From Tubulanus polymorphus (lineage: Eukaryota; Animalia; Nemertea), in contig NW_027437431.1 of assembly GCF_964204645.1 (NCBI RefSeq), positions 1-64,000 of the forward strand: 64,000 nucleotides of DNA, written 5' to 3'. The position numbers and the translations under genes were made by a program. The notes beneath the pieces are model-generated. The model was not told the origin of the DNA, did no database searches, and saw nothing but the letters and a program-made list of their open reading frames with translations. Position 1 is the stretch's first letter. The number at the start of each line of letters is the position of its first letter. Of this stretch, positions 6,566 through 64,000 are shown piece by piece.

Positions 6566-6567
6566 CT

Positions 6568-37320: not shown

Positions 37321-37328
37321 AAATGACT

Positions 37329-38389: not shown

Positions 38390-38659
38390 CACAGCCCGTG
38401 GTGGTCTGTGACAGTGGAGGTTAGTTAAAGTTCGAGGCGTGTGACTAGTCGGGGGGAATAACATAGGCGGCTACGCCGCGATAGTTAGTCGGCAAGGTCG
38501 GCTGCGCCTCCGGCGGTACAGATTACATCTGAGTGTATTAGTCTACCAACGGAAGCCCAAACCCTAAATAATATTAGTCGGAAAAATCTGAGTTAGAGGG
38601 TCGCAACCGGTTCAAACAATTTAACATCTCATACAGGTGACTCGTACTTTTAGTATCAA

Positions 38660-39742
38660 ATGCCATCGTTGAAACGGAGGCGAAACGGATTTACATTGCC
38701 CGGTTTACCACATTGCGGTCCATTCAACGATATATCCAGTTACAAAAGCGAAGGAATAGACGAAGTGTGCCGTATTCACGACAAAGAGTACGGAGAACTG
38801 CAAGAGAAATACGGTAAATGGGCTCCGTACTTCCAGTACAATTCAGCGGATCAGACATTTTTGGACAGTGCTTCGGGTGTGAACGGTGTAGGTGCGAGAC
38901 TAACGTCGAGTGTATTCAGAGCAAAACGGGCGTTATTTCCAACAATGGCGGAAGAACCGGCATTAAAAAGATCAAAGAGAACGGCGGAAACGGGGAGCGA
39001 AGAAGGGAACGCCCAACAAATGATGACTCACATGACGGAAAAGCCGTCACTACACTATAAGAGCGTGTTAATACATAGAGGTTACCTAACGTTTACGAAT
39101 TGGGATCCGGACCAGGCGTACGGAGCATTCGGAAGAAAAGCGAAGATTTACTGTTCGGGAATGAGAACGTTTAACTTCGGATTAAAAGAAAGAGAAGGAT
39201 GGAGAAGATTTCCAGCCAGCATGGATACCATAGGGATGTGGGATCAATTCAAAGTGACTTCGGGTAAAATAACGTTATACCCCATAGCGAGCGAAAGCGC
39301 GGTAAGCTCTGATTCGAACGCGTTCCAAGATCCGATAGTATGGTTAAAGACGGCAGCCGATTGGGACTTGAAAGTGAAAGACTCGGCCGCCAATACTCAC
39401 CAGGGATCGCCGTACGCCGATATAAATTTATTAACTCAAAAGCAAAGCTACAGGCAATACGAATTAGGTCGGGGATGCGTTAGCATGGGATTACCCATGT
39501 CGACCATAAGAACCGAAATACAAGACACGAGTGACCCGACAGACGTTACCAGATCGGTGAATATCGGGGATAACTCGGCGTGGTTAGACGGAGCGTACCG
39601 CGATCATTGGCAATCAGCCGCGCTCATTATGCAAATGTTAGTGTACAACGATTCGATACACGCGGATTTAAACACGCCCCATACAGAAATTATCGTTCCA
39701 GCGGAAGTGGAGTTTACGATGATTCATAGAAACAGAGTATAA
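38660..39742 (+). CDS. Putative capsid protein with N-terminal parvovirus VP1u-type phospholipase A2 (copy 1)
   Basis: GFTLPGLPHCGPFN (Ca-loop), DEVCRIHDKEY (HDxxY) and PYFQYNSADQTFL. Basic NLS-like runs KRRR and KRSKR. WDQFKVTSGKITLYP resembles a CRESS jelly-roll strand motif. Confidence 0.8.
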   Translation: MPSLKRRRNGFTLPGLPHCGPFNDISSYKSEGIDEVCRIHDKEYGELQEKYGKWAPYFQYNSADQTFLDSASGVNGVGARLTSSVFRAKRALFPTMAEEPALKRSKRTAETGSEEGNAQQMMTHMTEKPSLHYKSVLIHRGYLTFTNWDPDQAYGAFGRKAKIYCSGMRTFNFGLKEREGWRRFPASMDTIGMWDQFKVTSGKITLYPIASESAVSSDSNAFQDPIVWLKTAADWDLKVKDSAANTHQGSPYADINLLTQKQSYRQYELGRGCVSMGLPMSTIRTEIQDTSDPTDVTRSVNIGDNSAWLDGAYRDHWQSAALIMQMLVYNDSIHADLNTPHTEIIVPAEVEFTMIHRNRV

Positions 39743-39743
39743 T

Positions 39744-40052
39744 ATGATAATAACTTTCCTATTCTTGGCATCCGGTTTCCTACACGAGTACAAGTGGCAC
39801 GTATATACTAAACGTATCATGAGTAGAACGCAACGATTCATGAAAATAAGAGACGAAGTGGCGAACGAGTGGGTCATCAAACACGACGTCAACGAAAATC
39901 GGGTACTAAGGGAACAACACATTACAGAAGTAGCGAAAAGGATATTCTACTACCGGGAAAAACAATGGGAACTAAGTCGAGAAACTGGTCGTTCACAACC
40001 GACAATCGAGCAGAAGTCTGCCTCGAAAGTCAAATCGGAACGTCAACAGTAA
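39744..40052 (+). CDS. Small accessory ORF with a hydrophobic N-terminus, overlapping the Rep start (copy 1; present in all 8 copies)
   Basis: ATG lies 1 nt after the capsid stop (TAA-T-ATG). Starts MIITFLFLASGFL, then a charged helical-looking tail. Confidence 0.5.
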   Translation: MIITFLFLASGFLHEYKWHVYTKRIMSRTQRFMKIRDEVANEWVIKHDVNENRVLREQHITEVAKRIFYYREKQWELSRETGRSQPTIEQKSASKVKSERQQ

Positions 40053-41368
40053 CCGTACACATAGGTCCGCAAGAAGATCCGGACGGTTACGCGCACGGAG
40101 TAATAATAACGTTAGCCAAAGGTACGCAACGACCGTTGAAACAGAGCGAAAACGCGATTAGACAACTGTTACACTCGCTAGGCATTAGATTAGTTAACGA
40201 CTACATCAAACCGACGGAAAAATTAGGCGCCTACATTCAATACATGTACAAAGAAGCCGACAAAATACCGGAAGAATTACGAGGTCACTTGGAGGTGAAA
40301 AACTCGAAAACGAACGACGACTTTTTCGGCCAAAAGATAAACGCGTTATACGCGGAATACCAACAAAGACCGGGACTAGCCGATTGGACGGCGAGAATAG
40401 TGAAGGAGTTCGGTTACAACGTACCCGAACTGAAAGTGAAAAGATCGTTTAAAAATTGGCCGGTAAGGGTAAAAGATATTACGAGAAACGCGGGTGACTT
40501 TGCGTTGAAAATGACGGACATAACAGAGCCGAAATTGACGCCGGAAATGGGAGTAGAAATTATAACGAAATGCCTGGATAACGTTCAATCGGCGATGTGG
40601 GATGGTAAACATATAAATAAACGTGACCTGCTGGTAATATTGGTGAACGCGGCGATCGAGGGAGGTACGAGTAAAATCAGAAACGCGCCTCATATAATAT
40701 TTTACGGAGATGCCGGGTCTGGTAAATCGATGTTGGCTAAATTATTGTTCCCGGATTCGATTACGAGCCAAATGCCGACGGATTCGGAAGGCGTAGGAGC
40801 GTGCGAGATGGGAGGAGGACAACGTATATTCAAAGTCGACGACGCCAGCGACGCTTTTTGGCACAACTCGGGGTTGTTGTCGATGATACTCGCGATGTAC
40901 CAGTCCACCTGGGAGGCAAAAGTACATTCTAGTAAACAAAGTAACCCGCCGTGTATGACGGTAATTACGACGAATTGTAAGAATCCGTTAGAGAAGTTCG
41001 CCTCTACAGTAGCTTTGGAAGCTGTGGAAAGGAGATTCTTGTCGGTGTATTTCAAAGGTAAAGCAGATTTGGGAAACGTAGTTTACGACATTACGCCGGG
41101 CGTATGCGAAGAAATATTAGAAATAATAGTTAACGAAATTAGACAAGGTAGATATCTGGACAACCAAGTCCACTTGGACGACTGGGAAACGGATGATGAC
41201 GTGGTGATACCGTTCGAAAAAGAAAGAAACTTCATCGAAGCGTACCACGTAGGTCACATGTCGGACGCGATGCATCAGAATATGGAGGAAAGGTTAAAAC
41301 GTAAACGTAAAGAAGAAGACGATACGAATGAAACTCTTAAGTTCGCTAAACGCGGGGAAATCCTGTAG
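39965..41368 (+). CDS. rep: Replication initiator Rep: HUH endonuclease plus SF3 helicase (copy 1)
   Basis: Motif I RNWSFTTDN, motif II-like GYAHGVI, motif III YMYKE. Walker A GDAGSGKS, Walker B FKVDD, motif C VITTN, Arg finger AVERRF. The first ATG (acaATGg) is at 39965; the track start at 39869 is GTG. Confidence 0.85.
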   Translation: MGTKSRNWSFTTDNRAEVCLESQIGTSTVTVHIGPQEDPDGYAHGVIITLAKGTQRPLKQSENAIRQLLHSLGIRLVNDYIKPTEKLGAYIQYMYKEADKIPEELRGHLEVKNSKTNDDFFGQKINALYAEYQQRPGLADWTARIVKEFGYNVPELKVKRSFKNWPVRVKDITRNAGDFALKMTDITEPKLTPEMGVEIITKCLDNVQSAMWDGKHINKRDLLVILVNAAIEGGTSKIRNAPHIIFYGDAGSGKSMLAKLLFPDSITSQMPTDSEGVGACEMGGGQRIFKVDDASDAFWHNSGLLSMILAMYQSTWEAKVHSSKQSNPPCMTVITTNCKNPLEKFASTVALEAVERRFLSVYFKGKADLGNVVYDITPGVCEEILEIIVNEIRQGRYLDNQVHLDDWETDDDVVIPFEKERNFIEAYHVGHMSDAMHQNMEERLKRKRKEEDDTNETLKFAKRGEIL

Positions 41369-41379
41369 TTGGCAATGTA

Positions 41380-41385
41380 AATAAA
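41380..41385 (+). terminator. Polyadenylation signal after Rep (repeated every 3406 bp)
   Basis: AATAAA 11 nt after the Rep stop codon. Confidence 0.55.
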
Positions 41386-41425
41386 TCTATAAATAGAATT
41401 CTATAAATTTCTCAATTCGTTACTA

Positions 41426-41539
41426 CCAGTGGACCCGCAGACCCGCGGACCCACTGGCTGTTCGTTTTTCATGGTCTACCCCCCCTTATATATATAATAA
41501 GGAAAGAGAAGGAGGGTCCGCGGGTCCGCGGGTCTGCGG
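41426..41539. promoter_or_regulatory. Candidate origin/promoter: inverted 8-bp iterons flanking an AT-rich hairpin
   Basis: GGACCCGC-AGACCCGC-GGACCC, then CCTTAT[ATATATA]ATAAGG, then GGGTCCGC-GGGTCCGC-GGGTCTGC. 41435-41452 is the exact reverse complement of 41522-41539. Confidence 0.6.
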
Positions 41540-41620
41540 TATTCTCTAAACCGAGAATCGAAAAGTTAATGAAACTAGGTCGGAAAGATAACAAATTATT
41601 ATTCAATATATCCTAAAGCT

Positions 41621-41676
41621 TCTACGAGGTTGGTCACGCGCTCGCTACGCTCGCCAGCGTGACACAACCTCGTGGA
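41621..41676. promoter_or_regulatory. Long stem-loop in the viral intergenic region
   Basis: TCTACGAGGTTG-GTCACGC pairs with GCGTGAC-A-CAACCTCGTGGA (about 19 bp). Loop GCTCGCTACGCTCGCCA. Confidence 0.6.
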
Positions 41677-42065
41677 CGCTCCAAAGATAATGAGTATGTG
41701 CTTGATAATGAGTGAATTAATTGGGAACCCTATAGCGGGTAAAAGGTAAGAAGTAGAAATTATAGGGTTAGGGGTTATCATTATACTCGGATGCCCACAG
41801 CCCGTGGTGGTCTGTGACAGTGGAGGTTAGTTAAAGTTCGAGGCGTGTGACTAGTCGGGGGGAATAACATAGGCGGCTACGCCGCGATAGTTAGTCGGCA
41901 AGGTCGGCTGCGCCTCCGGCGGTACAGATTACATCTGAGTGTATTAGTCTACCAACGGAAGCCCAAACCCTAAATAATATTAGTCGGAAAAATCTGAGTT
42001 AGAGGGTCGCAACCGGTTCAAACAATTTAACATCTCATACAGGTGACTCGTACTTTTAGTATCAA

Positions 42066-43148
42066 ATGCCATCGTTGAAACGGAGGCGAAACGGATTTAC
42101 ATTGCCCGGTTTACCACATTGCGGTCCATTCAACGATATATCCAGTTACAAAAGCGAAGGAATAGACGAAGTGTGCCGTATTCACGACAAAGAGTACGGA
42201 GAACTGCAAGAGAAATACGGTAAATGGGCTCCGTACTTCCAGTACAATTCAGCGGATCAGACATTTTTGGACAGTGCTTCGGGTGTGAACGGTGTAGGTG
42301 CGAGACTAACGTCGAGTGTATTCAGAGCAAAACGGGCGTTATTTCCAACAATGGCGGAAGAACCGGCATTAAAAAGATCAAAGAGAACGGCGGAAACGGG
42401 GAGCGAAGAAGGGAACGCCCAACAAATGATGACTCACATGACGGAAAAGCCGTCACTACACTATAAGAGCGTGTTAATACATAGAGGTTACCTAACGTTT
42501 ACGAATTGGGATCCGGACCAGGCGTACGGAGCATTCGGAAGAAAAGCGAAGATTTACTGTTCGGGAATGAGAACGTTTAACTTCGGATTAAAAGAAAGAG
42601 AAGGATGGAGAAGATTTCCAGCCAGCATGGATACCATAGGGATGTGGGATCAATTCAAAGTGACTTCGGGTAAAATAACGTTATACCCCATAGCGAGCGA
42701 AAGCGCGGTAAGCTCTGATTCGAACGCGTTCCAAGATCCGATAGTATGGTTAAAGACGGCAGCCGATTGGGACTTGAAAGTGAAAGACTCGGCCGCCAAT
42801 ACTCACCAGGGATCGCCGTACGCCGATATAAATTTATTAACTCAAAAGCAAAGCTACAGGCAATACGAATTAGGTCGGGGATGCGTTAGCATGGGATTAC
42901 CCATGTCGACCATAAGAACCGAAATACAAGACACGAGTGACCCGACAGACGTTACCAGATCGGTGAATATCGGGGATAACTCGGCGTGGTTAGACGGAGC
43001 GTACCGCGATCATTGGCAATCAGCCGCGCTCATTATGCAAATGTTAGTGTACAACGATTCGATACACGCGGATTTAAACACGCCCCATACAGAAATTATC
43101 GTTCCAGCGGAAGTGGAGTTTACGATGATTCATAGAAACAGAGTATAA
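42066..43148 (+). CDS. PLA2-capsid, copy 2
   Basis: Translation identical to copy 1. Confidence 0.8.
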   Translation: MPSLKRRRNGFTLPGLPHCGPFNDISSYKSEGIDEVCRIHDKEYGELQEKYGKWAPYFQYNSADQTFLDSASGVNGVGARLTSSVFRAKRALFPTMAEEPALKRSKRTAETGSEEGNAQQMMTHMTEKPSLHYKSVLIHRGYLTFTNWDPDQAYGAFGRKAKIYCSGMRTFNFGLKEREGWRRFPASMDTIGMWDQFKVTSGKITLYPIASESAVSSDSNAFQDPIVWLKTAADWDLKVKDSAANTHQGSPYADINLLTQKQSYRQYELGRGCVSMGLPMSTIRTEIQDTSDPTDVTRSVNIGDNSAWLDGAYRDHWQSAALIMQMLVYNDSIHADLNTPHTEIIVPAEVEFTMIHRNRV

Positions 43149-43370
43149 TATGATAATAACTTTCCTATTCTTGGCATCCGGTTTCCTACACGAGTACAAG
43201 TGGCACGTATATACTAAACGTATCATGAGTAGAACGCAACGATTCATGAAAATAAGAGACGAAGTGGCGAACGAGTGGGTCATCAAACACGACGTCAACG
43301 AAAATCGGGTACTAAGGGAACAACACATTACAGAAGTAGCGAAAAGGATATTCTACTACCGGGAAAAACA

Positions 43371-44774
43371 ATGGGAACTAAGTCGAGAAACTGGTCGTTC
43401 ACAACCGACAATCGAGCAGAAGTCTGCCTCGAAAGTCAAATCGGAACGTCAACAGTAACCGTACACATAGGTCCGCAAGAAGATCCGGACGGTTACGCGC
43501 ACGGAGTAATAATAACGTTAGCCAAAGGTACGCAACGACCGTTGAAACAGAGCGAAAACGCGATTAGACAACTGTTACACTCGCTAGGCATTAGATTAGT
43601 TAACGACTACATCAAACCGACGGAAAAATTAGGCGCCTACATTCAATACATGTACAAAGAAGCCGACAAAATACCGGAAGAATTACGAGGTCACTTGGAG
43701 GTGAAAAACTCGAAAACGAACGACGACTTTTTCGGCCAAAAGATAAACGCGTTATACGCGGAATACCAACAAAGACCGGGACTAGCCGATTGGACGGCGA
43801 GAATAGTGAAGGAGTTCGGTTACAACGTACCCGAACTGAAAGTGAAAAGATCGTTTAAAAATTGGCCGGTAAGGGTAAAAGATATTACGAGAAACGCGGG
43901 TGACTTTGCGTTGAAAATGACGGACATAACAGAGCCGAAATTGACGCCGGAAATGGGAGTAGAAATTATAACGAAATGCCTGGATAACGTTCAATCGGCG
44001 ATGTGGGATGGTAAACATATAAATAAACGTGACCTGCTGGTAATATTGGTGAACGCGGCGATCGAGGGAGGTACGAGTAAAATCAGAAACGCGCCTCATA
44101 TAATATTTTACGGAGATGCCGGGTCTGGTAAATCGATGTTGGCTAAATTATTGTTCCCGGATTCGATTACGAGCCAAATGCCGACGGATTCGGAAGGCGT
44201 AGGAGCGTGCGAGATGGGAGGAGGACAACGTATATTCAAAGTCGACGACGCCAGCGACGCTTTTTGGCACAACTCGGGGTTGTTGTCGATGATACTCGCG
44301 ATGTACCAGTCCACCTGGGAGGCAAAAGTACATTCTAGTAAACAAAGTAACCCGCCGTGTATGACGGTAATTACGACGAATTGTAAGAATCCGTTAGAGA
44401 AGTTCGCCTCTACAGTAGCTTTGGAAGCTGTGGAAAGGAGATTCTTGTCGGTGTATTTCAAAGGTAAAGCAGATTTGGGAAACGTAGTTTACGACATTAC
44501 GCCGGGCGTATGCGAAGAAATATTAGAAATAATAGTTAACGAAATTAGACAAGGTAGATATCTGGACAACCAAGTCCACTTGGACGACTGGGAAACGGAT
44601 GATGACGTGGTGATACCGTTCGAAAAAGAAAGAAACTTCATCGAAGCGTACCACGTAGGTCACATGTCGGACGCGATGCATCAGAATATGGAGGAAAGGT
44701 TAAAACGTAAACGTAAAGAAGAAGACGATACGAATGAAACTCTTAAGTTCGCTAAACGCGGGGAAATCCTGTAG
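43371..44774 (+). CDS. rep: Rep (HUH + SF3 helicase), copy 2
   Basis: Translation identical to copy 1. Confidence 0.85.
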   Translation: MGTKSRNWSFTTDNRAEVCLESQIGTSTVTVHIGPQEDPDGYAHGVIITLAKGTQRPLKQSENAIRQLLHSLGIRLVNDYIKPTEKLGAYIQYMYKEADKIPEELRGHLEVKNSKTNDDFFGQKINALYAEYQQRPGLADWTARIVKEFGYNVPELKVKRSFKNWPVRVKDITRNAGDFALKMTDITEPKLTPEMGVEIITKCLDNVQSAMWDGKHINKRDLLVILVNAAIEGGTSKIRNAPHIIFYGDAGSGKSMLAKLLFPDSITSQMPTDSEGVGACEMGGGQRIFKVDDASDAFWHNSGLLSMILAMYQSTWEAKVHSSKQSNPPCMTVITTNCKNPLEKFASTVALEAVERRFLSVYFKGKADLGNVVYDITPGVCEEILEIIVNEIRQGRYLDNQVHLDDWETDDDVVIPFEKERNFIEAYHVGHMSDAMHQNMEERLKRKRKEEDDTNETLKFAKRGEIL

Positions 44775-45471
44775 TTGGCAATGTAAATAAATCTATAAAT
44801 AGAATTCTATAAATTTCTCAATTCGTTACTACCAGTGGACCCGCAGACCCGCGGACCCACTGGCTGTTCGTTTTTCATGGTCTACCCCCCCTTATATATA
44901 TAATAAGGAAAGAGAAGGAGGGTCCGCGGGTCCGCGGGTCTGCGGTATTCTCTAAACCGAGAATCGAAAAGTTAATGAAACTAGGTCGGAAAGATAACAA
45001 ATTATTATTCAATATATCCTAAAGCTTCTACGAGGTTGGTCACGCGCTCGCTACGCTCGCCAGCGTGACACAACCTCGTGGACGCTCCAAAGATAATGAG
45101 TATGTGCTTGATAATGAGTGAATTAATTGGGAACCCTATAGCGGGTAAAAGGTAAGAAGTAGAAATTATAGGGTTAGGGGTTATCATTATACTCGGATGC
45201 CCACAGCCCGTGGTGGTCTGTGACAGTGGAGGTTAGTTAAAGTTCGAGGCGTGTGACTAGTCGGGGGGAATAACATAGGCGGCTACGCCGCGATAGTTAG
45301 TCGGCAAGGTCGGCTGCGCCTCCGGCGGTACAGATTACATCTGAGTGTATTAGTCTACCAACGGAAGCCCAAACCCTAAATAATATTAGTCGGAAAAATC
45401 TGAGTTAGAGGGTCGCAACCGGTTCAAACAATTTAACATCTCATACAGGTGACTCGTACTTTTAGTATCAA

Positions 45472-46554
45472 ATGCCATCGTTGAAACGGAGGCGAAACGG
45501 ATTTACATTGCCCGGTTTACCACATTGCGGTCCATTCAACGATATATCCAGTTACAAAAGCGAAGGAATAGACGAAGTGTGCCGTATTCACGACAAAGAG
45601 TACGGAGAACTGCAAGAGAAATACGGTAAATGGGCTCCGTACTTCCAGTACAATTCAGCGGATCAGACATTTTTGGACAGTGCTTCGGGTGTGAACGGTG
45701 TAGGTGCGAGACTAACGTCGAGTGTATTCAGAGCAAAACGGGCGTTATTTCCAACAATGGCGGAAGAACCGGCATTAAAAAGATCAAAGAGAACGGCGGA
45801 AACGGGGAGCGAAGAAGGGAACGCCCAACAAATGATGACTCACATGACGGAAAAGCCGTCACTACACTATAAGAGCGTGTTAATACATAGAGGTTACCTA
45901 ACGTTTACGAATTGGGATCCGGACCAGGCGTACGGAGCATTCGGAAGAAAAGCGAAGATTTACTGTTCGGGAATGAGAACGTTTAACTTCGGATTAAAAG
46001 AAAGAGAAGGATGGAGAAGATTTCCAGCCAGCATGGATACCATAGGGATGTGGGATCAATTCAAAGTGACTTCGGGTAAAATAACGTTATACCCCATAGC
46101 GAGCGAAAGCGCGGTAAGCTCTGATTCGAACGCGTTCCAAGATCCGATAGTATGGTTAAAGACGGCAGCCGATTGGGACTTGAAAGTGAAAGACTCGGCC
46201 GCCAATACTCACCAGGGATCGCCGTACGCCGATATAAATTTATTAACTCAAAAGCAAAGCTACAGGCAATACGAATTAGGTCGGGGATGCGTTAGCATGG
46301 GATTACCCATGTCGACCATAAGAACCGAAATACAAGACACGAGTGACCCGACAGACGTTACCAGATCGGTGAATATCGGGGATAACTCGGCGTGGTTAGA
46401 CGGAGCGTACCGCGATCATTGGCAATCAGCCGCGCTCATTATGCAAATGTTAGTGTACAACGATTCGATACACGCGGATTTAAACACGCCCCATACAGAA
46501 ATTATCGTTCCAGCGGAAGTGGAGTTTACGATGATTCATAGAAACAGAGTATAA
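45472..46554 (+). CDS. PLA2-capsid, copy 3
   Basis: Translation identical to copy 1. Confidence 0.8.
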   Translation: MPSLKRRRNGFTLPGLPHCGPFNDISSYKSEGIDEVCRIHDKEYGELQEKYGKWAPYFQYNSADQTFLDSASGVNGVGARLTSSVFRAKRALFPTMAEEPALKRSKRTAETGSEEGNAQQMMTHMTEKPSLHYKSVLIHRGYLTFTNWDPDQAYGAFGRKAKIYCSGMRTFNFGLKEREGWRRFPASMDTIGMWDQFKVTSGKITLYPIASESAVSSDSNAFQDPIVWLKTAADWDLKVKDSAANTHQGSPYADINLLTQKQSYRQYELGRGCVSMGLPMSTIRTEIQDTSDPTDVTRSVNIGDNSAWLDGAYRDHWQSAALIMQMLVYNDSIHADLNTPHTEIIVPAEVEFTMIHRNRV

Positions 46555-46776
46555 TATGATAATAACTTTCCTATTCTTGGCATCCGGTTTCCTACACGAG
46601 TACAAGTGGCACGTATATACTAAACGTATCATGAGTAGAACGCAACGATTCATGAAAATAAGAGACGAAGTGGCGAACGAGTGGGTCATCAAACACGACG
46701 TCAACGAAAATCGGGTACTAAGGGAACAACACATTACAGAAGTAGCGAAAAGGATATTCTACTACCGGGAAAAACA

Positions 46777-48180
46777 ATGGGAACTAAGTCGAGAAACTGG
46801 TCGTTCACAACCGACAATCGAGCAGAAGTCTGCCTCGAAAGTCAAATCGGAACGTCAACAGTAACCGTACACATAGGTCCGCAAGAAGATCCGGACGGTT
46901 ACGCGCACGGAGTAATAATAACGTTAGCCAAAGGTACGCAACGACCGTTGAAACAGAGCGAAAACGCGATTAGACAACTGTTACACTCGCTAGGCATTAG
47001 ATTAGTTAACGACTACATCAAACCGACGGAAAAATTAGGCGCCTACATTCAATACATGTACAAAGAAGCCGACAAAATACCGGAAGAATTACGAGGTCAC
47101 TTGGAGGTGAAAAACTCGAAAACGAACGACGACTTTTTCGGCCAAAAGATAAACGCGTTATACGCGGAATACCAACAAAGACCGGGACTAGCCGATTGGA
47201 CGGCGAGAATAGTGAAGGAGTTCGGTTACAACGTACCCGAACTGAAAGTGAAAAGATCGTTTAAAAATTGGCCGGTAAGGGTAAAAGATATTACGAGAAA
47301 CGCGGGTGACTTTGCGTTGAAAATGACGGACATAACAGAGCCGAAATTGACGCCGGAAATGGGAGTAGAAATTATAACGAAATGCCTGGATAACGTTCAA
47401 TCGGCGATGTGGGATGGTAAACATATAAATAAACGTGACCTGCTGGTAATATTGGTGAACGCGGCGATCGAGGGAGGTACGAGTAAAATCAGAAACGCGC
47501 CTCATATAATATTTTACGGAGATGCCGGGTCTGGTAAATCGATGTTGGCTAAATTATTGTTCCCGGATTCGATTACGAGCCAAATGCCGACGGATTCGGA
47601 AGGCGTAGGAGCGTGCGAGATGGGAGGAGGACAACGTATATTCAAAGTCGACGACGCCAGCGACGCTTTTTGGCACAACTCGGGGTTGTTGTCGATGATA
47701 CTCGCGATGTACCAGTCCACCTGGGAGGCAAAAGTACATTCTAGTAAACAAAGTAACCCGCCGTGTATGACGGTAATTACGACGAATTGTAAGAATCCGT
47801 TAGAGAAGTTCGCCTCTACAGTAGCTTTGGAAGCTGTGGAAAGGAGATTCTTGTCGGTGTATTTCAAAGGTAAAGCAGATTTGGGAAACGTAGTTTACGA
47901 CATTACGCCGGGCGTATGCGAAGAAATATTAGAAATAATAGTTAACGAAATTAGACAAGGTAGATATCTGGACAACCAAGTCCACTTGGACGACTGGGAA
48001 ACGGATGATGACGTGGTGATACCGTTCGAAAAAGAAAGAAACTTCATCGAAGCGTACCACGTAGGTCACATGTCGGACGCGATGCATCAGAATATGGAGG
48101 AAAGGTTAAAACGTAAACGTAAAGAAGAAGACGATACGAATGAAACTCTTAAGTTCGCTAAACGCGGGGAAATCCTGTAG
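46777..48180 (+). CDS. rep: Rep (HUH + SF3 helicase), copy 3
   Basis: Translation identical to copy 1. Confidence 0.85.
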   Translation: MGTKSRNWSFTTDNRAEVCLESQIGTSTVTVHIGPQEDPDGYAHGVIITLAKGTQRPLKQSENAIRQLLHSLGIRLVNDYIKPTEKLGAYIQYMYKEADKIPEELRGHLEVKNSKTNDDFFGQKINALYAEYQQRPGLADWTARIVKEFGYNVPELKVKRSFKNWPVRVKDITRNAGDFALKMTDITEPKLTPEMGVEIITKCLDNVQSAMWDGKHINKRDLLVILVNAAIEGGTSKIRNAPHIIFYGDAGSGKSMLAKLLFPDSITSQMPTDSEGVGACEMGGGQRIFKVDDASDAFWHNSGLLSMILAMYQSTWEAKVHSSKQSNPPCMTVITTNCKNPLEKFASTVALEAVERRFLSVYFKGKADLGNVVYDITPGVCEEILEIIVNEIRQGRYLDNQVHLDDWETDDDVVIPFEKERNFIEAYHVGHMSDAMHQNMEERLKRKRKEEDDTNETLKFAKRGEIL

Positions 48181-54992: not shown

Positions 54993-55689
54993 TTGGCAAT
55001 GTAAATAAATCTATAAATAGAATTCTATAAATTTCTCAATTCGTTACTACCAGTGGACCCGCAGACCCGCGGACCCACTGGCTGTTCGTTTTTCATGGTC
55101 TACCCCCCCTTATATATATAATAAGGAAAGAGAAGGAGGGTCCGCGGGTCCGCGGGTCTGCGGTATTCTCTAAACCGAGAATCGAAAAGTTAATGAAACT
55201 AGGTCGGAAAGATAACAAATTATTATTCAATATATCCTAAAGCTTCTACGAGGTTGGTCACGCGCTCGCTACGCTCGCCAGCGTGACACAACCTCGTGGA
55301 CGCTCCAAAGATAATGAGTATGTGCTTGATAATGAGTGAATTAATTGGGAACCCTATAGCGGGTAAAAGGTAAGAAGTAGAAATTATAGGGTTAGGGGTT
55401 ATCATTATACTCGGATGCCCACAGCCCGTGGTGGTCTGTGACAGTGGAGGTTAGTTAAAGTTCGAGGCGTGTGACTAGTCGGGGGGAATAACATAGGCGG
55501 CTACGCCGCGATAGTTAGTCGGCAAGGTCGGCTGCGCATCCGGCGGTACAGATTACATCTGAGTGTATTAGTCTACCAACGGAAGCCCAAACCCTAAATA
55601 ATATTAGTCGGAAAAATCTGAGTTAGAGGGTCGCAACCGGTTCAAACAATTTAACATCTCATACAGGTGACTCGTACTTTTAGTATCAA

Positions 55690-56772
55690 ATGCCATCGTT
55701 GAAACGGAGGCGAAACGGATTTACATTGCCCGGTTTACCACATTGCGGTCCATTCAACGATATATCCAGTTACAAAAGCGAAGGAATAGACGAAGTGTGC
55801 CGTATTCACGACAAAGAGTACGGAGAACTGCAAGAGAAATACGGTAAATGGGCTCCGTACTTCCAGTACAATTCAGCGGATCAGACATTTTTGGACAGTG
55901 CTTCGGGTGTGAACGGTGTAGGTGCGAGACTAACGTCGAGTGTATTCAGAGCAAAACGGGCGTTATTTCCAACAATGGCGGAAGAACCGGCATTAAAAAG
56001 ATCAAAGAGAACGGCGGAAACGGGGAGCGAAGAAGGGAACGCCCAACAAATGATGACTCACATGACGGAAAAGCCGTCACTACACTATAAGAGCGTGTTA
56101 ATACATAGAGGTTACCTAACGTTTACGAATTGGGATCCGGACCAGGCGTACGGAGCATTCGGAAGAAAAGCGAAGATTTACTGTTCGGGAATGAGAACGT
56201 TTAACTTCGGATTAAAAGAAAGAGAAGGATGGAGAAGATTTCCAGCCAGCATGGATACCATAGGGATGTGGGATCAATTCAAAGTGACTTCGGGTAAAAT
56301 AACGTTATACCCCATAGCGAGCGAAAGCGCGGTAAGCTCTGATTCGAACGCGTTCCAAGATCCGATAGTATGGTTAAAGACGGCAGCCGATTGGGACTTG
56401 AAAGTGAAAGACTCGGCCGCCAATACTCACCAGGGATCGCCGTACGCCGATATAAATTTATTAACTCAAAAGCAAAGCTACAGGCAATACGAATTAGGTC
56501 GGGGATGCGTTAGCATGGGATTACCCATGTCGACCATAAGAACCGAAATACAAGACACGAGTGACCCGACAGACGTTACCAGATCGGTGAATATCGGGGA
56601 TAACTCGGCGTGGTTAGACGGAGCGTACCGCGATCATTGGCAATCAGCCGCGCTCATTATGCAAATGTTAGTGTACAACGATTCGATACACGCGGATTTA
56701 AACACGCCCCATACAGAAATTATCGTTCCAGCGGAAGTGGAGTTTACGATGATTCATAGAAACAGAGTATAA
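55690..56772 (+). CDS. PLA2-capsid, copy 6
   Basis: Translation identical to copy 1. Confidence 0.8.
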   Translation: MPSLKRRRNGFTLPGLPHCGPFNDISSYKSEGIDEVCRIHDKEYGELQEKYGKWAPYFQYNSADQTFLDSASGVNGVGARLTSSVFRAKRALFPTMAEEPALKRSKRTAETGSEEGNAQQMMTHMTEKPSLHYKSVLIHRGYLTFTNWDPDQAYGAFGRKAKIYCSGMRTFNFGLKEREGWRRFPASMDTIGMWDQFKVTSGKITLYPIASESAVSSDSNAFQDPIVWLKTAADWDLKVKDSAANTHQGSPYADINLLTQKQSYRQYELGRGCVSMGLPMSTIRTEIQDTSDPTDVTRSVNIGDNSAWLDGAYRDHWQSAALIMQMLVYNDSIHADLNTPHTEIIVPAEVEFTMIHRNRV

Positions 56773-56994
56773 TATGATAATAACTTTCCTATTCTTGGCA
56801 TCCGGTTTCCTACACGAGTACAAGTGGCACGTATATACTAAACGTATCATGAGTAGAACGCAACGATTCATGAAAATAAGAGACGAAGTGGCGAACGAGT
56901 GGGTCATCAAACACGACGTCAACGAAAATCGGGTACTAAGGGAACAACACATTACAGAAGTAGCGAAAAGGATATTCTACTACCGGGAAAAACA

Positions 56995-58398
56995 ATGGGA
57001 ACTAAGTCGAGAAACTGGTCGTTCACAACCGACAATCGAGCAGAAGTCTGCCTCGAAAGTCAAATCGGAACGTCAACAGTAACCGTACACATAGGTCCGC
57101 AAGAAGATCCGGACGGTTACGCGCACGGAGTAATAATAACGTTAGCCAAAGGTACGCAACGACCGTTGAAACAGAGCGAAAACGCGATTAGACAACTGTT
57201 ACACTCGCTAGGCATTAGATTAGTTAACGACTACATCAAACCGACGGAAAAATTAGGCGCCTACATTCAATACATGTACAAAGAAGCCGACAAAATACCG
57301 GAAGAATTACGAGGTCACTTGGAGGTGAAAAACTCGAAAACGAACGACGACTTTTTCGGCCAAAAGATAAACGCGTTATACGCGGAATACCAACAAAGAC
57401 CGGGACTAGCCGATTGGACGGCGAGAATAGTGAAGGAGTTCGGTTACAACGTACCCGAACTGAAAGTGAAAAGATCGTTTAAAAATTGGCCGGTAAGGGT
57501 AAAAGATATTACGAGAAACGCGGGTGACTTTGCGTTGAAAATGACGGACATAACAGAGCCGAAATTGACGCCGGAAATGGGAGTAGAAATTATAACGAAA
57601 TGCCTGGATAACGTTCAATCGGCGATGTGGGATGGTAAACATATAAATAAACGTGACCTGCTGGTAATATTGGTGAACGCGGCGATCGAGGGAGGTACGA
57701 GTAAAATCAGAAACGCGCCTCATATAATATTTTACGGAGATGCCGGGTCTGGTAAATCGATGTTGGCTAAATTATTGTTCCCGGATTCGATTACGAGCCA
57801 AATGCCGACGGATTCGGAAGGCGTAGGAGCGTGCGAGATGGGAGGAGGACAACGTATATTCAAAGTCGACGACGCCAGCGACGCTTTTTGGCACAACTCG
57901 GGGTTGTTGTCGATGATACTCGCGATGTACCAGTCCACCTGGGAGGCAAAAGTACATTCTAGTAAACAAAGTAACCCGCCGTGTATGACGGTAATTACGA
58001 CGAATTGTAAGAATCCGTTAGAGAAGTTCGCCTCTACAGTAGCTTTGGAAGCTGTGGAAAGGAGATTCTTGTCGGTGTATTTCAAAGGTAAAGCAGATTT
58101 GGGAAACGTAGTTTACGACATTACGCCGGGCGTATGCGAAGAAATATTAGAAATAATAGTTAACGAAATTAGACAAGGTAGATATCTGGACAACCAAGTC
58201 CACTTGGACGACTGGGAAACGGATGATGACGTGGTGATACCGTTCGAAAAAGAAAGAAACTTCATCGAAGCGTACCACGTAGGTCACATGTCGGACGCGA
58301 TGCATCAGAATATGGAGGAAAGGTTAAAACGTAAACGTAAAGAAGAAGACGATACGAATGAAACTCTTAAGTTCGCTAAACGCGGGGAAATCCTGTAG
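56995..58398 (+). CDS. rep: Rep (HUH + SF3 helicase), copy 6
   Basis: Translation identical to copy 1. Confidence 0.85.
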   Translation: MGTKSRNWSFTTDNRAEVCLESQIGTSTVTVHIGPQEDPDGYAHGVIITLAKGTQRPLKQSENAIRQLLHSLGIRLVNDYIKPTEKLGAYIQYMYKEADKIPEELRGHLEVKNSKTNDDFFGQKINALYAEYQQRPGLADWTARIVKEFGYNVPELKVKRSFKNWPVRVKDITRNAGDFALKMTDITEPKLTPEMGVEIITKCLDNVQSAMWDGKHINKRDLLVILVNAAIEGGTSKIRNAPHIIFYGDAGSGKSMLAKLLFPDSITSQMPTDSEGVGACEMGGGQRIFKVDDASDAFWHNSGLLSMILAMYQSTWEAKVHSSKQSNPPCMTVITTNCKNPLEKFASTVALEAVERRFLSVYFKGKADLGNVVYDITPGVCEEILEIIVNEIRQGRYLDNQVHLDDWETDDDVVIPFEKERNFIEAYHVGHMSDAMHQNMEERLKRKRKEEDDTNETLKFAKRGEIL

Positions 58399-59095
58399 TT
58401 GGCAATGTAAATAAATCTATAAATAGAATTCTATAAATTTCTCAATTCGTTACTACCAGTGGACCCGCAGACCCGCGGACCCACTGGCTGTTCGTTTTTC
58501 ATGGTCTACCCCCCCTTATATATATAATAAGGAAAGAGAAGGAGGGTCCGCGGGTCCGCGGGTCTGCGGTATTCTCTAAACCGAGAATCGAAAAGTTAAT
58601 GAAACTAGGTCGGAAAGATAACAAATTATTATTCAATATATCCTAAAGCTTCTACGAGGTTGGTCACGCGCTCGCTACGCTCGCCAGCGTGACACAACCT
58701 CGTGGACGCTCCAAAGATAATGAGTATGTGCTTGATAATGAGTGAATTAATTGGGAACCCTATAGCGGGTAAAAGGTAAGAAGTAGAAATTATAGGGTTA
58801 GGGGTTATCATTATACTCGGATGCCCACAGCCCGTGGTGGTCTGTGACAGTGGAGGTTAGTTAAAGTTCGAGGCGTGTGACTAGTCGGGGGGAATAACAT
58901 AGGCGGCTACGCCGCGATAGTTAGTCGGCAAGGTCGGCTGCGCCTCCGGCGGTACAGATTACATCTGAGTGTATTAGTCTACCAACGGAAGCCCAAACCC
59001 TAAATAATATTAGTCGGAAAAATCTGAGTTAGAGGGTCGCAACCGGTTCAAACAATTTAACATCTCATACAGGTGACTCGTACTTTTAGTATCAA

Positions 59096-60178
59096 ATGCC
59101 ATCGTTGAAACGGAGGCGAAACGGATTTACATTGCCCGGTTTACCACATTGCGGTCCATTCAACGATATATCCAGTTACAAAAGCGAAGGAATAGACGAA
59201 GTGTGCCGTATTCACGACAAAGAGTACGGAGAACTGCAAGAGAAATACGGTAAATGGGCTCCGTACTTCCAGTACAATTCAGCGGATCAGACATTTTTGG
59301 ACAGTGCTTCGGGTGTGAACGGTGTAGGTGCGAGACTAACGTCGAGTGTATTCAGAGCAAAACGGGCGTTATTTCCAACAATGGCGGAAGAACCGGCATT
59401 AAAAAGATCAAAGAGAACGGCGGAAACGGGGAGCGAAGAAGGGAACGCCCAACAAATGATGACTCACATGACGGAAAAGCCGTCACTACACTATAAGAGC
59501 GTGTTAATACATAGAGGTTACCTAACGTTTACGAATTGGGATCCGGACCAGGCGTACGGAGCATTCGGAAGAAAAGCGAAGATTTACTGTTCGGGAATGA
59601 GAACGTTTAACTTCGGATTAAAAGAAAGAGAAGGATGGAGAAGATTTCCAGCCAGCATGGATACCATAGGGATGTGGGATCAATTCAAAGTGACTTCGGG
59701 TAAAATAACGTTATACCCCATAGCGAGCGAAAGCGCGGTAAGCTCTGATTCGAACGCGTTCCAAGATCCGATAGTATGGTTAAAGACGGCAGCCGATTGG
59801 GACTTGAAAGTGAAAGACTCGGCCGCCAATACTCACCAGGGATCGCCGTACGCCGATATAAATTTATTAACTCAAAAGCAAAGCTACAGGCAATACGAAT
59901 TAGGTCGGGGATGCGTTAGCATGGGATTACCCATGTCGACCATAAGAACCGAAATACAAGACACGAGTGACCCGACAGACGTTACCAGATCGGTGAATAT
60001 CGGGGATAACTCGGCGTGGTTAGACGGAGCGTACCGCGATCATTGGCAATCAGCCGCGCTCATTATGCAAATGTTAGTGTACAACGATTCGATACACGCG
60101 GATTTAAACACGCCCCATACAGAAATTATCGTTCCAGCGGAAGTGGAGTTTACGATGATTCATAGAAACAGAGTATAA
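59096..60178 (+). CDS. PLA2-capsid, copy 7
   Basis: Translation identical to copy 1. Confidence 0.8.
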   Translation: MPSLKRRRNGFTLPGLPHCGPFNDISSYKSEGIDEVCRIHDKEYGELQEKYGKWAPYFQYNSADQTFLDSASGVNGVGARLTSSVFRAKRALFPTMAEEPALKRSKRTAETGSEEGNAQQMMTHMTEKPSLHYKSVLIHRGYLTFTNWDPDQAYGAFGRKAKIYCSGMRTFNFGLKEREGWRRFPASMDTIGMWDQFKVTSGKITLYPIASESAVSSDSNAFQDPIVWLKTAADWDLKVKDSAANTHQGSPYADINLLTQKQSYRQYELGRGCVSMGLPMSTIRTEIQDTSDPTDVTRSVNIGDNSAWLDGAYRDHWQSAALIMQMLVYNDSIHADLNTPHTEIIVPAEVEFTMIHRNRV

Positions 60179-60400
60179 TATGATAATAACTTTCCTATTC
60201 TTGGCATCCGGTTTCCTACACGAGTACAAGTGGCACGTATATACTAAACGTATCATGAGTAGAACGCAACGATTCATGAAAATAAGAGACGAAGTGGCGA
60301 ACGAGTGGGTCATCAAACACGACGTCAACGAAAATCGGGTACTAAGGGAACAACACATTACAGAAGTAGCGAAAAGGATATTCTACTACCGGGAAAAACA

Positions 60401-61804
60401 ATGGGAACTAAGTCGAGAAACTGGTCGTTCACAACCGACAATCGAGCAGAAGTCTGCCTCGAAAGTCAAATCGGAACGTCAACAGTAACCGTACACATAG
60501 GTCCGCAAGAAGATCCGGACGGTTACGCGCACGGAGTAATAATAACGTTAGCCAAAGGTACGCAACGACCGTTGAAACAGAGCGAAAACGCGATTAGACA
60601 ACTGTTACACTCGCTAGGCATTAGATTAGTTAACGACTACATCAAACCGACGGAAAAATTAGGCGCCTACATTCAATACATGTACAAAGAAGCCGACAAA
60701 ATACCGGAAGAATTACGAGGTCACTTGGAGGTGAAAAACTCGAAAACGAACGACGACTTTTTCGGCCAAAAGATAAACGCGTTATACGCGGAATACCAAC
60801 AAAGACCGGGACTAGCCGATTGGACGGCGAGAATAGTGAAGGAGTTCGGTTACAACGTACCCGAACTGAAAGTGAAAAGATCGTTTAAAAATTGGCCGGT
60901 AAGGGTAAAAGATATTACGAGAAACGCGGGTGACTTTGCGTTGAAAATGACGGACATAACAGAGCCGAAATTGACGCCGGAAATGGGAGTAGAAATTATA
61001 ACGAAATGCCTGGATAACGTTCAATCGGCGATGTGGGATGGTAAACATATAAATAAACGTGACCTGCTGGTAATATTGGTGAACGCGGCGATCGAGGGAG
61101 GTACGAGTAAAATCAGAAACGCGCCTCATATAATATTTTACGGAGATGCCGGGTCTGGTAAATCGATGTTGGCTAAATTATTGTTCCCGGATTCGATTAC
61201 GAGCCAAATGCCGACGGATTCGGAAGGCGTAGGAGCGTGCGAGATGGGAGGAGGACAACGTATATTCAAAGTCGACGACGCCAGCGACGCTTTTTGGCAC
61301 AACTCGGGGTTGTTGTCGATGATACTCGCGATGTACCAGTCCACCTGGGAGGCAAAAGTACATTCTAGTAAACAAAGTAACCCGCCGTGTATGACGGTAA
61401 TTACGACGAATTGTAAGAATCCGTTAGAGAAGTTCGCCTCTACAGTAGCTTTGGAAGCTGTGGAAAGGAGATTCTTGTCGGTGTATTTCAAAGGTAAAGC
61501 AGATTTGGGAAACGTAGTTTACGACATTACGCCGGGCGTATGCGAAGAAATATTAGAAATAATAGTTAACGAAATTAGACAAGGTAGATATCTGGACAAC
61601 CAAGTCCACTTGGACGACTGGGAAACGGATGATGACGTGGTGATACCGTTCGAAAAAGAAAGAAACTTCATCGAAGCGTACCACGTAGGTCACATGTCGG
61701 ACGCGATGCATCAGAATATGGAGGAAAGGTTAAAACGTAAACGTAAAGAAGAAGACGATACGAATGAAACTCTTAAGTTCGCTAAACGCGGGGAAATCCT
61801 GTAG
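60401..61804 (+). CDS. rep: Rep (HUH + SF3 helicase), copy 7
   Basis: Translation identical to copy 1. Confidence 0.85.
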   Translation: MGTKSRNWSFTTDNRAEVCLESQIGTSTVTVHIGPQEDPDGYAHGVIITLAKGTQRPLKQSENAIRQLLHSLGIRLVNDYIKPTEKLGAYIQYMYKEADKIPEELRGHLEVKNSKTNDDFFGQKINALYAEYQQRPGLADWTARIVKEFGYNVPELKVKRSFKNWPVRVKDITRNAGDFALKMTDITEPKLTPEMGVEIITKCLDNVQSAMWDGKHINKRDLLVILVNAAIEGGTSKIRNAPHIIFYGDAGSGKSMLAKLLFPDSITSQMPTDSEGVGACEMGGGQRIFKVDDASDAFWHNSGLLSMILAMYQSTWEAKVHSSKQSNPPCMTVITTNCKNPLEKFASTVALEAVERRFLSVYFKGKADLGNVVYDITPGVCEEILEIIVNEIRQGRYLDNQVHLDDWETDDDVVIPFEKERNFIEAYHVGHMSDAMHQNMEERLKRKRKEEDDTNETLKFAKRGEIL

Positions 61805-62501
61805 TTGGCAATGTAAATAAATCTATAAATAGAATTCTATAAATTTCTCAATTCGTTACTACCAGTGGACCCGCAGACCCGCGGACCCACTGGCTGTTCG
61901 TTTTTCATGGTCTACCCCCCCTTATATATATAATAAGGAAAGAGAAGGAGGGTCCGCGGGTCCGCGGGTCTGCGGTATTCTCTAAACCGAGAATCGAAAA
62001 GTTAATGAAACTAGGTCGGAAAGATAACAAATTATTATTCAATATATCCTAAAGCTTCTACGAGGTTGGTCACGCGCTCGCTACGCTCGCCAGCGTGACA
62101 CAACCTCGTGGACGCTCCAAAGATAATGAGTATGTGCTTGATAATGAGTGAATTAATTGGGAACCCTATAGCGGGTAAAAGGTAAGAAGTAGAAATTATA
62201 GGGTTAGGGGTTATCATTATACTCGGATGCCCACAGCCCGTGGTGGTCTGTGACAGTGGAGGTTAGTTAAAGTTCGAGGCGTGTGACTAGTCGGGGGGAA
62301 TAACATAGGCGGCTACGCCGCGATAGTTAGTCGGCAAGGTCGGCTGCGCCTCCGGCGGTACAGATTACATCTGAGTGTATTAGTCTACCAACGGAAGCCC
62401 AAACCCTAAATAATATTAGTCGGAAAAATCTGAGTTAGAGGGTCGCAACCGGTTCAAACAATTTAACATCTCATACAGGTGACTCGTACTTTTAGTATCA
62501 A

Positions 62502-63584
62502 ATGCCATCGTTGAAACGGAGGCGAAACGGATTTACATTGCCCGGTTTACCACATTGCGGTCCATTCAACGATATATCCAGTTACAAAAGCGAAGGAATA
62601 GACGAAGTGTGCCGTATTCACGACAAAGAGTACGGAGAACTGCAAGAGAAATACGGTAAATGGGCTCCGTACTTCCAGTACAATTCAGCGGATCAGACAT
62701 TTTTGGACAGTGCTTCGGGTGTGAACGGTGTAGGTGCGAGACTAACGTCGAGTGTATTCAGAGCAAAACGGGCGTTATTTCCAACAATGGCGGAAGAACC
62801 GGCATTAAAAAGATCAAAGAGAACGGCGGAAACGGGGAGCGAAGAAGGGAACGCCCAACAAATGATGACTCACATGACGGAAAAGCCGTCACTACACTAT
62901 AAGAGCGTGTTAATACATAGAGGTTACCTAACGTTTACGAATTGGGATCCGGACCAGGCGTACGGAGCATTCGGAAGAAAAGCGAAGATTTACTGTTCGG
63001 GAATGAGAACGTTTAACTTCGGATTAAAAGAAAGAGAAGGATGGAGAAGATTTCCAGCCAGCATGGATACCATAGGGATGTGGGATCAATTCAAAGTGAC
63101 TTCGGGTAAAATAACGTTATACCCCATAGCGAGCGAAAGCGCGGTAAGCTCTGATTCGAACGCGTTCCAAGATCCGATAGTATGGTTAAAGACGGCAGCC
63201 GATTGGGACTTGAAAGTGAAAGACTCGGCCGCCAATACTCACCAGGGATCGCCGTACGCCGATATAAATTTATTAACTCAAAAGCAAAGCTACAGGCAAT
63301 ACGAATTAGGTCGGGGATGCGTTAGCATGGGATTACCCATGTCGACCATAAGAACCGAAATACAAGACACGAGTGACCCGACAGACGTTACCAGATCGGT
63401 GAATATCGGGGATAACTCGGCGTGGTTAGACGGAGCGTACCGCGATCATTGGCAATCAGCCGCGCTCATTATGCAAATGTTAGTGTACAACGATTCGATA
63501 CACGCGGATTTAAACACGCCCCATACAGAAATTATCGTTCCAGCGGAAGTGGAGTTTACGATGATTCATAGAAACAGAGTATAA
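62502..63584 (+). CDS. PLA2-capsid, copy 8
   Basis: Translation identical to copy 1. Confidence 0.8.
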   Translation: MPSLKRRRNGFTLPGLPHCGPFNDISSYKSEGIDEVCRIHDKEYGELQEKYGKWAPYFQYNSADQTFLDSASGVNGVGARLTSSVFRAKRALFPTMAEEPALKRSKRTAETGSEEGNAQQMMTHMTEKPSLHYKSVLIHRGYLTFTNWDPDQAYGAFGRKAKIYCSGMRTFNFGLKEREGWRRFPASMDTIGMWDQFKVTSGKITLYPIASESAVSSDSNAFQDPIVWLKTAADWDLKVKDSAANTHQGSPYADINLLTQKQSYRQYELGRGCVSMGLPMSTIRTEIQDTSDPTDVTRSVNIGDNSAWLDGAYRDHWQSAALIMQMLVYNDSIHADLNTPHTEIIVPAEVEFTMIHRNRV

Positions 63585-63806
63585 TATGATAATAACTTTC
63601 CTATTCTTGGCATCCGGTTTCCTACACGAGTACAAGTGGCACGTATATACTAAACGTATCATGAGTAGAACGCAACGATTCATGAAAATAAGAGACGAAG
63701 TGGCGAACGAGTGGGTCATCAAACACGACGTCAACGAAAATCGGGTACTAAGGGAACAACACATTACAGAAGTAGCGAAAAGGATATTCTACTACCGGGA
63801 AAAACA

Positions 63807-64000
63807 ATGGGAACTAAGTCGAGAAACTGGTCGTTCACAACCGACAATCGAGCAGAAGTCTGCCTCGAAAGTCAAATCGGAACGTCAACAGTAACCGTAC
63901 ACATAGGTCCGCAAGAAGATCCGGACGGTTACGCGCACGGAGTAATAATAACGTTAGCCAAAGGTACGCAACGACCGTTGAAACAGAGCGAAAACGCGAT
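63807..64000 (+). CDS. rep: Rep, copy 8 (cut by the window end)
   Basis: Same sequence as the copy 1 N-terminus. Confidence 0.75.
   Translation, partial: MGTKSRNWSFTTDNRAEVCLESQIGTSTVTVHIGPQEDPDGYAHGVIITLAKGTQRPLKQSENA

Follow-up and report, generated by a model that had tools for sequence, protein, structure and literature searches.

A head-to-tail array of an intact hybrid genome, probably of a single-stranded DNA virus, beside transposon DNA in a contig of Tubulanus polymorphus

The repeated unit and its genes

The window analysed here is the first 64,000 nucleotides of contig NW_027437431.1 of the nemertean Tubulanus polymorphus, which consists of a 38-kb flank and, from position 38390 to the end, an array of a unit carrying a capsid gene, a small open reading frame (ORF) and a gene for a replication protein (Rep). 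The array repeats with a period of 3406 bp, with 99.99% of positions being identical one period on (the runner-up period reaches 29%), giving 7.52 copies in the window, which vary at a single base, 55538, outside the coding regions. The unit has three open plus-strand ORFs, and since the copies do not differ elsewhere, every unit contained completely in the window has them open too. The original prediction, made from the letters of this stretch, of at least 7.5 tandem copies with intact ORFs is thus borne out. The features are as follows, in window coordinates, where pLDDT denotes the predicted local distance difference test, PLA2 phospholipase A2 and z the folding score relative to shuffled sequence.

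38390 to 64000, plus strand: head-to-tail array of 7.52 units of 3406 bp, from the periodicity; it extends beyond the window
38390 to 41795, plus strand: first unit, numbered from the junction, with the following units beginning each 3406 bp
37810 to 38391, plus strand: interrupted host ORF and left junction, multi-copy in the sequencing runs, with 38390-38391 common to host and unit
38660 to 39742, plus strand: capsid gene, 360 amino acids, from Pfam PF08398 (PLA2-like, E 2.4e-11) and model matches to circovirus capsids
39744 to 40052, plus strand: ORF2, 102 amino acids, from the ORF list, overlapping the Rep start
39965 to 41368, plus strand: Rep, 467 amino acids, from 48 relatives, a motif table and a model with pLDDT 81.8
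41380 to 41385, plus strand: polyadenylation-type hexamer just past the Rep stop, of putative use
41424 to 41541, no strand: hairpin 1, whose GC-rich stem of 18-21 bp is made of short iterated repeats, with an asymmetric centre and a small inner palindrome
41617 to 41680, no strand: hairpin 2, a second GC-rich imperfect palindrome (z -5.39)

The array differs from its flank in composition, as had been predicted: the GC content is 44-47% versus mostly 31-43% (one 1-kb flank window reaches 50%), and the observed/expected ratio of CpG is 1.40-1.69 versus 0.40-1.21, with a strong purine skew in the array. The flank holds broken mobile elements (a retroviral-type protease, ORF1 and ORF2 of a long interspersed nuclear element (LINE), a Helitron, and a DDE transposase/DDE zinc finger), and no match to a second copy of the unit was found in its 38 kb. 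The high CpG together with the near-zero divergence of the copies argues for little time in the host. The right end of the array lies outside the window.

Rep has HUH-type motifs I-III, a superfamily 3 (SF3) helicase with Walker A, Walker B, motif C and an Arg finger, and an acidic/basic tail. In motif II the first His is replaced by Tyr while the conserved Glu and the second His are kept, and the first His is also absent in part of the Rep family. This family consists of 48 relatives, with 22-42% identity, found among 1.84 billion representatives. Rep matches no viral Rep family in Pfam, PF01057 not even at E 1, and at E 0.001 none of the 48 relatives matches Viral_Rep (PF02407), RNA_helicase (PF00910), Parvo_NS1 (PF01057), Gemini_AL1 or PPV_E1_C. 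The 60 best PDB sequence matches of the Rep profile include no parvoviral Rep, word-based protein searches gave no match for Rep or for the capsid protein, and the top 50 BFVD rows for Rep, many of them unnamed, contain no Rep of a named parvo-like hybrid virus (PHV). Judged from its sequence, Rep belongs to an unnamed family. Its top Atlas feature clusters are Rep_OBD, Viral_Rep and Gemini_AL1, which are HUH Rep clusters. The helicase part of the model compares best with papillomavirus E1 (Z 12.7), Rep40 of adeno-associated virus (AAV; Z 12.2 and 11.9) and B19 NS1 (Z 11.0), with alignments over 178-186 residues at a root-mean-square deviation (rmsd) of 3.5-4.0, whereas Rep of porcine circovirus 2 (PCV2) gives Z 9.3 and 8.8 over 126-131 residues, a gap that is explained in part by the shorter PCV2 constructs. 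The helicase fold is thereby predicted to be nearer to papillomavirus E1 and AAV Rep than to circovirus Rep.

The capsid protein is laid out as a PLA2-like domain at residues 10-89 with a His-Asp pair, to which the Pfam match belongs, a basic linker and a predicted single jelly roll at residues 129-360. The best solved matches of the first domain are the VP1 N-termini of bufavirus and AAV, and by its sequence it is a PLA2 domain of the parvovirus VP1 type and a predicted enzyme. The remainder resembles cressdnavirus clusters in language-model (Atlas) features (0.92-0.95), and the capsid model, which is of low confidence (pLDDT 46.6), fits best to the capsids of a bat circovirus and beak and feather disease virus (Z 7.7, rmsd 4.9 over 170 residues, and Z 6.6), with parvovirus capsids scoring lower (Z 5.2). 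In BFVD, rank 1 for the same model is a PHV capsid (E 6e-10, full length), followed by circovirus-like capsids. What is predicted is a parvovirus-type PLA2 domain joined to a circovirus-like jelly roll, where in-frame methionines past the PLA2 domain would permit a short capsid form without it. A profile search with the capsid protein retrieved 4 proteins only, which resemble the metagenome loci described below. For ORF2, a small ORF over the Rep start in the relatives matches in position only, homology between the two being not significant.

Hairpins, relatives and the form of the genome

No windows of the unit fold better than the two hairpins, and hairpin 1 ranks first among the 120-nt windows (z -5.45, with 0 of 200 shuffles as good), and its 7 copies in the window are identical in orientation. 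From its sequence, hairpin 1 is the likely origin or telomere, while hairpin 2 may be the other genome end or a promoter/origin element. The canonical nonanucleotide, for which the circovirus-type origin pattern was used, is absent from both hairpins, and its 2 occurrences in the unit both lie on the minus strand within the Rep gene. No polyadenylation-type hexamer follows the capsid stop before Rep begins. Note also that short telomere-like G-rich and C-rich words lie at 41760-41775 and 38553-38568 in the non-coding part, the former about 20 bases before the junction position, and that a telomere hexamer is also present inside the inner palindrome of relatives. Telomere-type integration was rejected, because one TTAGGG and one CCCTAA per unit are too few.

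A metagenome scan, in which 23 of 33 pattern matches were confirmed, gave 22 loci related to the unit. Because certain places were recovered more than once, from different assemblies (L003/L004, L007/L013/L014, L008/L011 and L017/L018), the loci are not independent and may stem from few hosts. Scans of viral_contigs gave no relative. All the loci that hold both genes have the capsid gene before Rep on the same strand, and this is the reverse of the PHV gene order. The PLA2 region is present in L005 (a partial gene), L008, L011, L016, L017, L018 and L020. L007/L013/L014 form a second group, having a capsid without PLA2, a long Arg/Ser-rich N-terminus, a longer ORF2 and a different palindrome. 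In L005, L006, L008-L012 and L015 a conserved ORF of ~230 amino acids lies in another frame over the 3' third of Rep, which the unit does not have.

Several of the loci run into host-like DNA (a P450 exon, a DDE zinc finger and an integrase zinc domain), the contigs carrying three members of the family measure 41 kb, 175 kb and 1.94 Mb, and some relative copies are frameshifted. One of the 30 representatives looked up is an annotated Styela clava protein and none bears a virus name (one other is a 'hypothetical protein'). For 6 intact Reps, all 15 pairs give a ratio of nonsynonymous to synonymous substitution rates (dN/dS) of 0.02-0.05 at dS of 0.12-1.09, a sign of purifying selection and the pattern that circulating viruses entering again and again would give. 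On this sequence evidence the lineage is viral, animal-associated and often endogenised.

Palindromes of 120-300 nt lie 3' of Rep in the relatives. Their inner core is found in 9 of the 22 loci, in one orientation in L003, L004, L005, L006 and L009 and inverted in L010, L015, L020 and L021, i.e., 5 versus 4, with L003 and L004 being one locus. L006, L021 and L003/L004 are without the full closing arm, yet both orientations occur among them; assemblers can invert a loop that lies between long perfect arms, but the orientation of the half-hairpins of L006 and L021 is not assembler-ambiguous. Flip/flop palindromes mark rolling-hairpin replication (PMC12297876), and the two orientations would be the flip/flop sign of it. 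Moreover, in L011 a stretch of 71-74 nt of the sub-terminal sequence recurs inverted upstream of the capsid gene, and head-to-tail re-entry into the element is seen in L005, L006 and L016. The gene order, the palindrome orientations and the re-entry point towards a linear virus of the rolling-hairpin kind and away from a classic circular one, and it is in this respect that the original prediction, which took the genome to be circular, is not the best reading: no canonical nonanucleotide lies in the hairpins, and the palindromes of the relatives occur in both orientations. It is noted separately that L006 (3049-3070) and L021 (1304-1325) have their breaks precisely at the inner palindrome's tip, and that L009 and L010 contain inverted Rep fragments joined at the hairpin, resembling template-switch junctions.

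An integrated circular cressdnavirus, in which hairpin 1 would be an iteron-flanked origin nicked at a non-standard site and rolling-circle replication would have produced the array directly, is nevertheless to be considered. One main hairpin per unit, in one orientation and with iterated stem repeats, would suit it; the YxxK motif III, the acidic Walker B and the Arg finger are of cressdnavirus-like types; and the circovirus-like capsid and the Atlas clusters of Rep agree with it. By contrast, the lack of the canonical nonanucleotide in either hairpin, the relatives in which the palindrome occurs either way round and sub-terminal sequence recurs inverted, and the longer and higher-scoring helicase alignments to E1, AAV and B19 than to PCV2 speak against it, and we regard it as improbable.

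HUH transposons have fixed termini and no capsid gene, which is relevant to another possibility, that of a capsid-bearing transposon amplifying itself by Rep-driven rolling-circle transposition. Unlike Helitron and Replitron, the unit has a capsid gene and the ends of the relatives vary, the breakpoints being in or near the hairpin in many, short of the hairpin in L008 and in the middle of Rep in L019 and L022, while the junction in the window lies away from both hairpins. A dS of up to 1.1 with dN/dS near 0.03 fits a diverse virus population, the flank lacks a second copy, and the proteins of the unit match no known non-viral transposon family, such a match having been named in the original prediction as refuting it. 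The many dispersed related copies and the tandem forms among the 22 loci, as well as a parvovirus-like repeat of an acorn worm with >50 copies (PMC3198968), would be in keeping with a transposon, which we consider very improbable all the same.

Chromosomal array or free episome

The stretch was found in four runs of one study (X1-X4); no RNA run is listed with it, which carries no information on expression. Here X1, X2 and X3, which come from two samples (X2 and X3 being sample S2) and of which X1 may be the source of the assembly, are compared with the raw reads of X5, a run of another study on another sample of the same species, 12% of which was read. In contigs of X1, X2 and X3 the unit closes from 41795 to 38390, with no differing letters in the listed pieces. 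The depth of the unit versus that of a low-copy flank contig is 1980 versus 80 in X1, 1047 versus 19.5 in X2 and 332 versus 8.25 in X3, so that the unit stands 25, 54 and 40 times above the flank, loose ratios that agree within ~2-fold across the two samples. In X5, where the low-copy flank has a depth of 6-11, the unit genes are covered patchily at a depth of 1-40 and at least 88% likeness, with no reads over 41232-41795 and no unit-to-unit joint in the part read; the X5 sample is without the exact unit and has diverged partial relatives. Across the samples, the unit is thus seen in X1-X3, while X5 offers diverged relatives only. A diverged relative occurs in X1 as well, at a depth of 81. Note that the unit contig of X1 breaks at the Rep start (39956-39982) and that the depth-81 contig matches it in patches (40111-40880), being likely an older diverged relative elsewhere.

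The array begins within the host ORF that starts at 37810, which we take to resemble a BEL/Pao gag, although Pfam did not confirm this. The window flank differs from uninterrupted host contigs at 3 places just before the junction, and so the flank that carries the junction seems to be another copy or allele of the host sequence. Contig simplification would tend to drop a branch whose depth is 40-80 where it leads into a contig with a depth of 1980. As to the integration into a chromosome that was originally predicted, the assembly joins the array to host sequence and places it beside transposon DNA, while no bridging piece is listed; we regard integration as probable. With a little less confidence, but still as the more probable reading, we take the array to have arisen very recently, when a head-to-tail concatemer of an ssDNA (single-stranded DNA) virus of an unclassified lineage was inserted into a chromosome, with parvovirus-like replication by terminal hairpins being likely. 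The earlier view of a whole, intact and very recent hybrid ssDNA-virus genome agrees with the open ORFs, the mixed modules and the near-identical copies.

The competing possibility is a free virus or episome, i.e., circles or long concatemers that were present in the sequenced tissue or arose during library amplification, and that a single chimeric read or the assembler joined to a host repeat. It would account for the virtually identical copies and for an array that reaches the window end, for the exact unit being missing from X5, and for the uninterrupted host contigs of X1 and X3 without a bridging piece being listed. However, the unit/flank depth is similar in two samples, the sequence flanking the junction is a variant of its own, X1 and X5 contain diverged relatives at low-copy depth, and other relatives lie in host DNA elsewhere. 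A free form is therefore considered unlikely.

Several points weigh against an integrated array of a linear hairpin virus. The 38389/38390 join is known from the assembly only, and among the 24 listed of ~3,950 contig pieces none bridges it, which is no proof of absence; host contigs 6 (X1) and 18 (X3) align to 38391 and continue uninterrupted into other sequence. A self-closing contig would be expected from a free circle no less than from an array, contig depth does not equal copy number, and X1-X4 belong to a single study. In X2 and X3, and not in X1, the depth over 40810-41626 is half of that over the rest of the unit. The linear form rests on relatives with 24-35% Rep identity from short-read assemblies that are possibly chimeric, and the unit itself has no flip/flop and no inverted terminal repeat (ITR) extending past the hairpin stem, its hairpin being much shorter than the palindromes of the relatives and unlike them in sequence. 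Lastly, the confidence of the capsid model is low, and the fold comparison of Rep covers the SF3 helicase, the HUH assignment coming from motifs and Atlas features. As regards the half-depth region itself, it may reflect a second variant without (or with a replacement of) the Rep 3' end and hairpin 1, or a library bias. A restriction-site bias was tried for the breaks in X2 and X3 and rejected, as some lie at or near GATC/TTAA, but 40810 and 41597-41626 not clearly.

The repeat, the hairpins, the intact genes, and the Rep family with its common gene order are observed; based on the insertion of a hairpin-virus concatemer, the following pathway can be proposed. The virus genome would be linear ssDNA ending in a palindrome. 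Rep would bind the iterated repeats of the stem, nick and unwind, by which the palindrome centre would invert, giving flip and flop as in the relatives. Joining of the two ends of a single duplex genome within the nucleus would form a circle with one hairpin 1, and rolling-circle or recombination-driven copying of this single circle would yield the concatemer; because a single template would be copied, the copies are identical and their hairpins are all in one orientation. A broken concatemer end would then be captured by end joining at a chromosome break in a host repeat, with a 2-base overlap. Since the junction follows hairpin 2 by 110 bases and hairpin 1 by ~250, it is not at the putative telomere. 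The array would be longer than the window, very roughly 25-50 copies. AAV forms tandem proviruses and head-to-tail episomes, and AAV Rep releases genomes from tandem proviruses. By this analogy Rep could in principle release genomes from the array, in which six units lie between two hairpin 1 copies. That the array is latent is speculation.

Comparison with known systems

By analogy, the unit would work most like a concatemer-integrated parvovirus and be built most like an oomyvirus. Oomyviridae have linear ssDNA, a PLA2-containing capsid and an HUH-type Rep that is placed in Arfiviricetes, their likely hosts being stramenopiles (PMC12451638, PMC13426907; further sources on oomyviruses and parvo-like hybrid viruses are bioRxiv 10.64898/2026.04.22.720165, PMC4419787 and PMC9896142). 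The unit resembles these viruses (Lineavirales; the parvo-like hybrid viruses NIH-CQV/PHV) in the PLA2-containing jelly-roll capsid, as the BFVD rank on the low-confidence model indicates. It differs from them in that its Rep family lacks any match to PF02407 or PF00910 and has a helicase predicted to be nearer to E1 and AAV Rep, and in that the unit lies in animal-like DNA and a relative is annotated in Styela clava, an indirect sign that the host is no stramenopile.

With Parvoviridae the unit has in common the VP1-type PLA2, the predicted SF3 helicase fold of the E1/Rep40/NS1 type, flip/flop palindromes (in the relatives only) and the tendency to integrate as head-to-tail arrays. It differs in having no Parvo_NS1 match in Pfam and no sequence homology to parvoviral NS1 in the searches above, in a jelly roll of ~230 residues that is predicted to be nearer to that of circoviruses, and, if the genome ends at hairpin 1, in the capsid gene being upstream of Rep. 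Circoviridae and other circular cressdnaviruses share with it the small jelly-roll capsid (predicted for the unit), the HUH motifs I-III and the SF3 helicase with Arg finger, but the unit has no canonical nonanucleotide origin, has all its genes on one strand, and has the PLA2 extension and additional helical elements in the helicase.

Integrated invertebrate elements have been published before. The densovirus of Echinococcus multilocularis (EmuDNV) has >20 integrated loci, mostly head-to-tail concatemers with ITRs, a VP of 321 amino acids, and an NS1 with Parvo_NS1 and PPV_E1_C that precedes VP, many copies being truncated or frameshifted (PMC6880638). The unit is like it in the array form, the short capsid protein and the invertebrate host, and unlike it in having intact, near-identical copies and another Rep family. 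The acorn-worm parvovirus-like repeat, DENSOV_HM and PIVE/PEVE are multi-copy invertebrate elements with a PF08398 capsid and a terminal hairpin, of which DENSOV_HM fell near papillomavirus helicases; unlike the unit, the acorn-worm element carries PF01057 and is dispersed (PMC3198968). The original prediction contrasted this tandem form with the usual single, decayed elements, but head-to-tail arrays of ssDNA-virus genomes in an invertebrate (PMC6880638) and a multi-copy parvovirus-like element (PMC3198968) are on record. Viral PLA2 occurs in parvoviruses and some RNA viruses (PMC11903649), and circular 'dark matter' genomes with PLA2 clusters (PMC7000223) might include members of the present Rep family.

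We found no published description of the gene order or of the Rep family in a search that left most subscription papers and the Oomyviridae proposal to the virus taxonomy committee ICTV outside its reach. From the sequence comparisons the virus lineage is probably unclassified and undescribed, and this is the firmest novelty, one that was underrated by the original prediction. More tentatively, and with doubt prevailing, the lineage may be of family or order level, an animal ssDNA lineage between Cressdnaviricota and Cossaviricota that persists as an inherited intact tandem provirus able to re-release genomes; it would combine a helicase of parvovirus/papillomavirus type, rolling-hairpin ends and a circovirus-type capsid with PLA2. 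How parvoviruses and papillomaviruses arose from circular Rep-encoding viruses is still unsettled, and such a lineage, if real, would be a living intermediate or one more case of module swapping. Animal hosts are indicated by the lineage's own insertions. The array would catch endogenisation at its first step, being intact, unmutated, and apparently carried by one sample set but not by another of the same species, so that it can be tested directly how an ssDNA provirus is inherited, silenced and kept latent.

Finally, we note some contents of the flank. At 5036-9486 there is an almost complete LINE, whose ORF1 is of the GDSL-esterase type and whose ORF2 is frameshifted, a decayed Helitron with an endonuclease-like segment occupies 11400-17400 on the minus strand, and an exon-like ORF at 30290-30787 has a NO VEIN C-terminal domain (PF13020), being possibly a piece of a host gene. 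Host repeats of very high copy number (depth up to 390,000 in X1) lie at 33000-33600 and 35940-37330, the latter being presumably akin to a DIRS-type retrotransposon, with no Pfam match.

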